A DNA stretch of 10,626 nucleotides, taken from the IMG/VR virus record IMGVR_UViG_2529292985_000036; one strand, written 5' to 3'. The number at the start of each line of letters is the position of its first letter. Position 1 is the first letter of the stretch. The notes under the pieces were generated by a model. It had not been told where the DNA came from, made no database searches, and worked only from the letters and a program-made list of their open reading frames with translations. This DNA comes from a virus. Lineage: Duplodnaviria > Heunggongvirae > Uroviricota > Caudoviricetes. The position numbers and the translations under genes were made by a program. Shown here piece after piece: positions 6,035 to 6,635 of this stretch.

Positions 6035-6087
6035 TTTCTGGTGACGTTTGGCGGTATCAGTTTTACTCCGTGACTGCTCTGCCGCCC
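6035..6087 (+). ncRNA. dicF: DicF small regulatory RNA (53 nt)
   Basis: tttctggtgacgtttggcggtatcagttttactccgtgactgctctgccgccc matches the E. coli DicF sequence as I recall it. Followed by TTTTT (6088..6092); sits between the upstream ORFs and dicB as in Qin. Confidence 0.8.
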
Positions 6088-6092
6088 TTTTT
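6050..6092 (+). terminator. Intrinsic terminator-like 3' stem-loop of DicF
   Basis: GGCGG (6050..6054) pairs with CCGCC (6082..6086), inner CAG/CTG pairing, then T5 (6088..6092). Confidence 0.6.
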
Positions 6093-6261
6093 AAAGTGAA
6101 TTTTGTGATGTGGTGAATGCGGCTGAGCGCACGCGGAACAGTTAAAACCAAAAACAGTGTTATGGGTGGATTCTCTGTATCCGGCGTTAATTGTTAACTG
6201 GTTAACGTCACCTGGAGGCACCAGGCACCGCATCACAAAATTCATTGTTGAGGACGCGATA

Positions 6262-6450
6262 ATGGAAACGTTATTACCAAACGTTAATACGTCTGAAGGT
6301 TGTTTTGATATTGGTGTTCTGCTCAGTAACCGGGAGTTTACGGAAGATGCCATTAAGATGAGAAAATATGAACCTTATCTTCTCAATGATAATTCCATAC
6401 TTTCCAGAATTGCCCTTCTTGAACTTGGTATTATCGGAGAACAGCAGTGA
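6262..6450 (+). CDS. dicB: Cell division inhibitor DicB, 62 aa
   Basis: ATG at 6262 with GAGGA 7 nt upstream. METLLPNVNTSEGCFDIGVLLSNREFTEDAIKMRKYEPYLLNDNSILSRIALLELGIIGEQQ: N-terminal ~30 aa near-identical to K-12 DicB by recall, C-terminal part appears divergent. The track ORF 6157..6450 has an unsupported N-terminal extension. Confidence 0.85.
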   Translation: METLLPNVNTSEGCFDIGVLLSNREFTEDAIKMRKYEPYLLNDNSILSRIALLELGIIGEQQ

Positions 6451-6635
6451 CTTCAGCATTTGCACTGGTGATGACCGTTTTTCTTATAACGGGTGAGCCA
6501 CAAAATGTGATTACCGGAATTTATGACAGTAAGTCATCCTGCATTCAGGTAAGGGACGAACAAAAAATCCCCGGTGAATGCCTCCCGTTAAAAAAAGTAT
6601 CGCTGAACCTGAATAACGAAATACCGGCTGGATAA
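6447..6635 (+). CDS. ydfD: YdfD-like small lysis protein with hydrophobic N-terminal segment, 62 aa
   Basis: GTG start at 6447 overlapping the dicB TGA (GTGA). MTSAFALVMTVFLITGEPQNV...DEQKIPGECLPLKKV...NNEIPAG resembles Qin YdfD by recall; likely transmembrane helix at residues 4-15. Confidence 0.75.
   Translation: MTSAFALVMTVFLITGEPQNVITGIYDSKSSCIQVRDEQKIPGECLPLKKVSLNLNNEIPAG

Follow-up and report, generated by a model that had tools for sequence, protein, structure and literature searches.

Gene Content and Organization of the Prophage Arm

The window, by which we mean the whole stretch of DNA analyzed (10,626 nt), represents a lambda-like prophage's left arm. Its minus strand carries replication genes, a YdaT-like gene (3755–4306) and a P22-Cro-like gene (4290–4550). 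On the plus strand follow, in this order, a DicA-like repressor gene (4595–5002), a ydfA-like DUF1391 gene, an open reading frame of 128 codons (5343–5729), DicF (6035–6087), dicB (6262–6450), a DUF1482 gene (6447–6635), an exonuclease gene (6731–9205), an excisionase gene (9270–9518) and a lambda-type integrase gene (9496–10626), which stops exactly at the window edge. The integrase gene abuts ompW in the closest relative, a PPompW-type prophage, and the nearest relatives of the window's prophage are integrated beside ompW. Positions 1–392, including an open reading frame at 1–378 on the plus strand, are unmatched in the closest related prophages, whose alignments begin at 393. We read the position around 393 as another mosaic junction.

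The DicA-like repressor is only 56% identical to K-12 DicA, and because of this the prophage, with its immunity region at 4290–5114, is predicted to be heteroimmune to Qin. A consensus scan gave a candidate dicBp-like promoter of the pL type on the plus strand at 5086–5114 (TTGACC-17-TAAATT). It follows the DicA-like repressor gene, at the place that dicBp takes in K-12. The −35 element TTGACC aligns with the dicA-ydfA intergenic region of K-12 and the surrounding operator sequence differs, which fits with a different immunity. We infer that this is the promoter of the operon.

The 128-aa open reading frame, on the plus strand, occupies the place of ydfB and ydfC in K-12. It matches PHROG 6937 (unknown function) and gave no Pfam match; its first ∼60 residues also match three further PHROGs, which suggests a shared N-terminal module. 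The exonuclease is full-length (824 aa), with an Rv2179c-like 3′–5′ exoribonuclease domain only at residues 643–814 and no Pfam match in the N-terminal part of ∼640 residues. The K-12 copy of this gene is truncated by IS2.

The context of the module is complete, comprising the Cro-like and DicA-like genes, the ydfA-like gene, the exonuclease gene, xis and int. The order Cro-like, DicA-like, ydfA-like, orf128, DicF, dicB matches that of K-12, with dicB downstream of DicF in a prophage operon predicted to be under a DicA-type repressor. In the best explanation of the locus, which taken as a whole we consider probable, the DicF-dicB-ydfD segment is part of the early-left (pL-type) operon of the prophage and is controlled by the DicA-like repressor.

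DicF and the Adjacent Non-coding Sequence

DicF (6035–6087, plus strand) was assigned by its match to Rfam family RF00039 and its identity to K-12. It is 53 nt long and followed by a T-run. RF00039 matches 6036–6087 on the plus strand over model positions 1–52 of 52, with 76.7 bits and an E-value of 6e-16 (gathering score 48). The sequence is identical to DicF of K-12 Qin, and the exact 53-nt K-12 DicF was found in a K-12-derived locus (L002) and in a second locus (L001). The preliminary description had taken the RNA for the canonical 53-nt sRNA, and both the Rfam score and the identity to K-12 agree with this.

The RNA folds into a predicted terminator-like stem-loop (−15.9 kcal/mol) with the T-run after it. 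A consensus terminator scan of the plus strand left this terminator unflagged because the stem is bulged, but it is evident from both the Rfam match and the predicted fold. By sequence identity, the target-pairing regions and the terminator hairpin of the experimentally defined K-12 DicF are all present. As the canonical sRNA, the window's DicF should pair with ftsZ and other mRNAs as in K-12. Repression of ftsZ by Hfq-dependent base pairing would be expected because the sequence is identical to that of the K-12 RNA characterized in PMC5069750.

The region upstream of DicF (5880–6034, plus strand) is near-identical to K-12 Qin and corresponds to the 5′ precursor region within the polycistronic transcript from which DicF is processed. 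The spacer between DicF and dicB (6088–6261, plus strand) contains the Shine-Dalgarno sequence of dicB, GAGGA, and has one mismatch to K-12, at position 6229. When aligned with Qin of a K-12 derivative (L002), the segment 5969–6308 shows only two differences, at 6229 and 6265, over ∼340 positions. This non-coding block is thus almost the same as in K-12 although the genes on either side have been replaced or are mosaic. With 5900–6700 as the query, a match to at least some part of it was obtained for 4730 of the 5426 complete E. coli genomes.

In a close relative from E. coli FDAARGOS_1260 (L003, 7144–8238) an IsrK sRNA, a C4 antisense RNA and a gene for a Rha-family regulator separate a copy of DicF from dicB. 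The spacer of these two is thus a site at which a moron or antirepressor module can be inserted.

The dicB Gene and Its Mosaic 3′ Part

The dicB gene extends from an ATG at 6262 to a TGA at 6450 on the plus strand and is intact, encoding 62 aa. Its product matches Pfam family PF05358 over positions 1–62 of 62 with 129.5 bits (cut-off 27; K-12 DicB scores 136.8 bits) and NCBIfam family NF049927 with 111 bits (cut-off 100). Overall 38 of the 62 residues are identical to K-12 DicB, distributed as 25 of 31 in residues 1–31 and 13 of 31 in residues 32–62. A conserved N-terminal and a divergent C-terminal half had been noted in the preliminary description; the alignment confirms this pattern, and the C-terminal peptide given there was correct. 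Among residues 1–15, 14 are as in K-12, the single change being K2E, and L5 is present. The net charge of residues 32–62 is 0, vs. +6 in K-12, and that of the whole protein is −5, vs. +3 in K-12.

The divergent part of dicB belongs to a mosaic cassette (6309–6673) that consists of the dicB 3′ part, the ydfD-like gene and a short downstream spacer. This cassette of ∼360 bp diverges from K-12 Qin and stands in for the K-12 version between near-identical flanks. In a sliding-window comparison, identity to K-12 Qin is ≥97% up to 6308, 30–70% from about 6309 to 6673, and ∼90% ahead of the exonuclease gene. The megablast match to K-12-type genomes ends at 6373, inside dicB. The DicB tail of the window is a product of ordinary lambdoid mosaicism, with breakpoints at about 6309–6373 and at 6673.

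We also considered a frameshift of the K-12 sequence as the origin of the C-terminus and rejected it. The nucleotide identity to K-12 in 6374–6450 is only 33–63%, from which the 3′ segment is a diverged or replaced homolog rather than a shifted frame.

The ydfD-Like Gene

The DUF1482 gene reads from a GTG at 6447 to a TAA at 6635 on the plus strand and encodes 62 aa. Its start overlaps the dicB stop codon as GTGA, with a GGAG 7 nt upstream; the corresponding K-12 junction is ATGA. The two reading frames (6262–6450 and 6447–6635) are both intact and overlap in the way first described.

The earlier naming of this gene as ydfD holds in part. The product is an intact homolog, matching PF07358 (DUF1482) with 56.4 bits (cut-off 25), where K-12 YdfD scores 91.1 bits, but only 30 of 62 residues (48%) are identical to K-12 YdfD, and its RefSeq name is “DUF1482 family protein.” We regard YdfD-like as the better name. 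The protein has T2 in place of N2 and ends in …IPAG without L63, which makes it one residue shorter than K-12 YdfD; it does not combine close identity to the K-12 protein with intact termini (N2, L63). In K-12, cells survive when YdfD has a one-residue deletion at the N- or C-terminus or carries N2A or L63A (Lu et al., 2022, PMC8835842). Because the window's protein is 48% identical, is without L63 and has T2 for N2, it is unsafe to carry the term lytic over from K-12 YdfD, and lytic activity of the YdfD-like protein is uncertain and should not be assumed.

Proteins of the DUF1482/YdfD family are themselves mosaic, as seen in L003 (8434–8637), where a divergent N-terminal half is joined to a K-12-like C-terminal half with a 4-residue extension.

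Two Common Types of DicB

To judge from the 120 listed cluster representatives of a DicB search, the C-terminus of DicB comes in two discrete common types, which we call A (K-12) and B (window). Type A, with the pattern …RK[QH]ERELLNKICI[VL]SMLARLR..KGC.Q, was seen in 39 representatives among the matches listed, and type B, with the pattern …MRKYEPYLLNDNSILSRIALL.LGI.GE.Q, in 61. A B-like form, …YEPYLLMDGSILSFLALNSLGVFKEE, accounted for 7 of the representatives listed, from records named Citrobacter and from unnamed assemblies. Columns that are invariant or nearly so in both types comprise almost all of residues 1–15, F26, T27, E28, D29, A30 and I31, R34, K35 and E37, and L40, L41, I46, S48 and A51.

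Natural hybrids of the two types exist. P0019 has a K-12-like middle segment and a type-B C-terminus, and P0066 equals the window's DicB up to residue 35 and K-12 DicB from residue 36 onward. The alleles appear to have been shuffled by recombination between lambdoid prophages with a breakpoint inside dicB.

Within type B, residues 36–55 are 97% conserved, vs. 72% for residues 16–25, in a sample of 29 cluster representatives that is biased to the query; in type A, conservation of residues 36–55 is 87%. From the 97% conservation the C-terminal region of type B appears constrained, not decaying.

The DicB family as a whole is narrow. An exhaustive HMM search for remote homologs among 1.84 billion representatives yielded 42 matches, all of them Escherichia-type DicB, fragments or fusion artifacts. 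A survey of species by genome contigs gave seven loci, in E. coli, Shigella, E. albertii, E. ruysiae and one Veillonella MAG, and both DicB types are present in E. albertii. The MAG contig (L006, JAGZPX010000007.1, labeled Veillonella parvula) carries a K-12-like DicF-dicB-ydfD module and is almost certainly E. coli DNA that was mis-binned. An explicit description of DicB allele classes was not found in the literature searched.

Distribution of the Type-B Cassette

With positions 6380–6670 as the query and a coverage of at least 80%, the type-B cassette was found in 790 of 5426 complete E. coli genomes, which is about one in seven (about 15%); in 330 of them the identity is ≥99%. The K-12-type cassette is present in 3937 of the same 5426 genomes. 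The exact DicB protein is encoded on at least 1000 public contigs, where it is annotated as “cell division inhibition protein DicB,” and contigs with the YdfD-like protein in exact form likewise number at least 1000, the annotation being “DUF1482 family protein.” Twelve phage or prophage records, including PPompW elements, encode the exact DicB, and it is present in ompW-integrated prophages of Shiga-toxin-producing E. coli (STEC), including STEC O145:H28. The impression given at first that this C-terminus is unusual does not survive these counts. Both the module and the exact protein are already catalogued and widespread, which makes the finding real but ordinary.

Probable Function of the Type-B DicB

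As part of the explanation of the locus that we consider probable, type-B DicB, to judge from its sequence and predicted fold, would still bind MinC and inhibit division in the manner of K-12 DicB. For K-12 DicB, the N-terminal ∼14 aa and L5 are critical for activity, and position 2 has to be occupied but tolerates substitution (Yang et al., 2016, PMC4967827). Toxicity is intact after C-terminal fusions or loss of the last 8 residues, and deletion of 12–20 C-terminal residues weakens the protein (PMC4967827), so residues from about 43 to 54 contribute to activity. These residues fall where types A and B differ.

An AlphaFold2 model of the window's DicB has helices at residues 11–22, 24–36 and 46–55 (mean pLDDT 79), and that of the hybrid P0066, which has the K-12 C-terminus, has helices at 11–21, 24–36, 38–41 and 46–55 (pLDDT 85), both models being built on a shallow alignment of low diversity. 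Types A and B appear to share the same predicted helices, and the hydrophobic pattern of the C-terminal helix is kept. A PDB sequence search with DicB gave no match, and a Foldseek search gave nothing significant (best E-value 6.1), so that structure offers no lead to the mechanism.

For the window's module we infer MinC binding, division inhibition and regulation. Type-B DicB would bind MinC through the conserved N-terminus and the helical core, the MinC-bound protein would block division, and the C-terminal differences would be mostly changes in surface and charge plus a dispensable tail. No experiment on MinC binding or MinC-dependent filamentation by the type-B protein was found in the literature searched.

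It could instead be that the type-B C-terminal half retargets DicB, so that MinC binding is kept and a second contact is changed, either the ZipA-mediated targeting to the septum or the inhibition of ManYZ, dependent on MinC, by which lambda DNA is kept from entering. The alleles would then differ in the strength of the division block or in their phage-exclusion spectrum. In K-12, MinC-dependent inhibition of ManYZ by DicB protects from lambda and 434. Several observations are consistent with such retargeting: the two C-terminal classes are discrete with few intermediates, each is internally conserved over residues 36–55 (97% in B, 87% in A), the charge of residues 32–62 shifts from +6 in K-12 to 0 in the window, removal of 12–20 C-terminal residues lowers the activity of K-12 DicB, and many genomes have several dicB copies (median 2 places per genome). 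However, anciently diverged modules of mosaic phages would also yield discrete classes without a change in function, and the hydrophobic pattern and predicted helices are alike in both types. The preliminary description had suggested that the C-terminal half could change partner specificity; this is not supported, and only the large difference in charge leaves room for it. We give retargeting a small chance.

In its general form, DicB would consist of two functionally distinct allele classes with a common MinC-binding N-terminus and differently charged C-terminal helices that reach different second partners, be it ZipA, ManYZ or another envelope protein, a proposal to which we assign a slim chance. 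If it were true, type-B prophages would give a phage-exclusion or division-block phenotype unlike that of K-12 Qin, and the distinct classes would help to account for the retention of more than one dicB copy by many E. coli.

The exchange of the dicB 3′ half together with the ydfD-like gene could also mean that the two are a co-adapted pair of antidote and lysis protein. The divergent block is exactly the dicB 3′ part plus ydfD, co-expression of DicB prevents lysis by YdfD in K-12, and the E. albertii locus L004 pairs a type-B DicB with a type-B YdfD-like protein. Yet the genes are adjacent, and their joint exchange requires no selection. In FDAARGOS_1260 the YdfD encoded after a type-B DicB has a C-terminal half like that of K-12, which argues that the types assort independently. 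SulA, like DicB, prevents YdfD lysis in K-12 (PMC8835842), and for this reason the protection is ascribed to the block of division as such. We give this reading very little credence and consider it unlikely that the DicB C-terminus and YdfD are co-adapted.

It is barely credible that the type-B allele is a leftover of a cryptic prophage that is in decay or without function, for instance after a frameshift: the module does often occur in defective prophages, and databases hold many truncated, frameshifted or IS-interrupted DicB variants, but here the reading frame is intact at the canonical 62 aa, the 33–63% nucleotide identity of the 3′ half leaves no room for a frameshift of the K-12 sequence, the identical protein is found on at least 1000 contigs and the cassette at ≥99% in 330 complete genomes, and the C-terminal region is highly conserved within type B.

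The biochemistry of DicB and YdfD has all been done on the K-12 (type-A) proteins. A type-B DicB and a 48%-identical YdfD homolog are found, in addition or instead, in about 15% of complete E. coli genomes, STEC lineages included. The K-12 results on MinC, ZipA, ManYZ and phage exclusion should therefore be carried over with caution to the alleles of pathogenic strains.

Comparison With Known Systems

The window shares its gene order and orientation with the DicA-repressed dicBF operon of K-12 Qin (Kim), ydfABC-dicF-dicB-ydfDE. The two hardly differ in DicF, in the precursor region ahead of it or in the spacer before dicB. Both have a DicA-like repressor gene and a Cro/DicC-like gene upstream, a 62-aa dicB with the same start context, a DUF1482 gene overlapping the dicB stop, and the exonuclease gene next to it. 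The window differs from Qin in the C-terminal half of DicB (13/31 identical; uncharged in the window, basic in K-12), in the YdfD-like protein (48% identical, GTG start, without L63), in the 128-aa open reading frame found in place of ydfB/ydfC, and in the repressor (56% identical). The exonuclease, xis and int genes are intact in the window and not, as in Qin, truncated by IS2.

The PPompW prophages of STEC O145:H28 (LC567818–LC567841) and Escherichia phage 204576 encode a DicB that is 100% identical to that of the window and annotated as “cell division inhibition protein.” They match positions 1529–10626 at 96.3% over 72% of the length, integrase end included. The match is partial, however, and parts of the window, including 1–1528 on the replication side, are unmatched.

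Zhao et al. (2019, PMC6915034) worked on the dicB of E. coli O157:H7 (EDL933/NCTC 12900), which is also of type B, as deduced from the reverse primer, which encodes …GIFGERQ-stop (the forward primer encodes METLLPN). It is a sub-variant with IFGERQ where the window has IIGEQQ. In O157:H7 strains altered in dicC or dicA, the level of dicB transcript went along with cell length, and a dicB deletion mutant gave more VBNC cells (PMC6915034). This is the sole experimental work that we found on a type-B allele, and it is indirect, providing transcript and deletion data rather than MinC binding or direct division inhibition.

Taken together, the comparisons place the module in the known dicBF operon family, as all features of membership that can be computed for DicF and DicB are present in its sequence.
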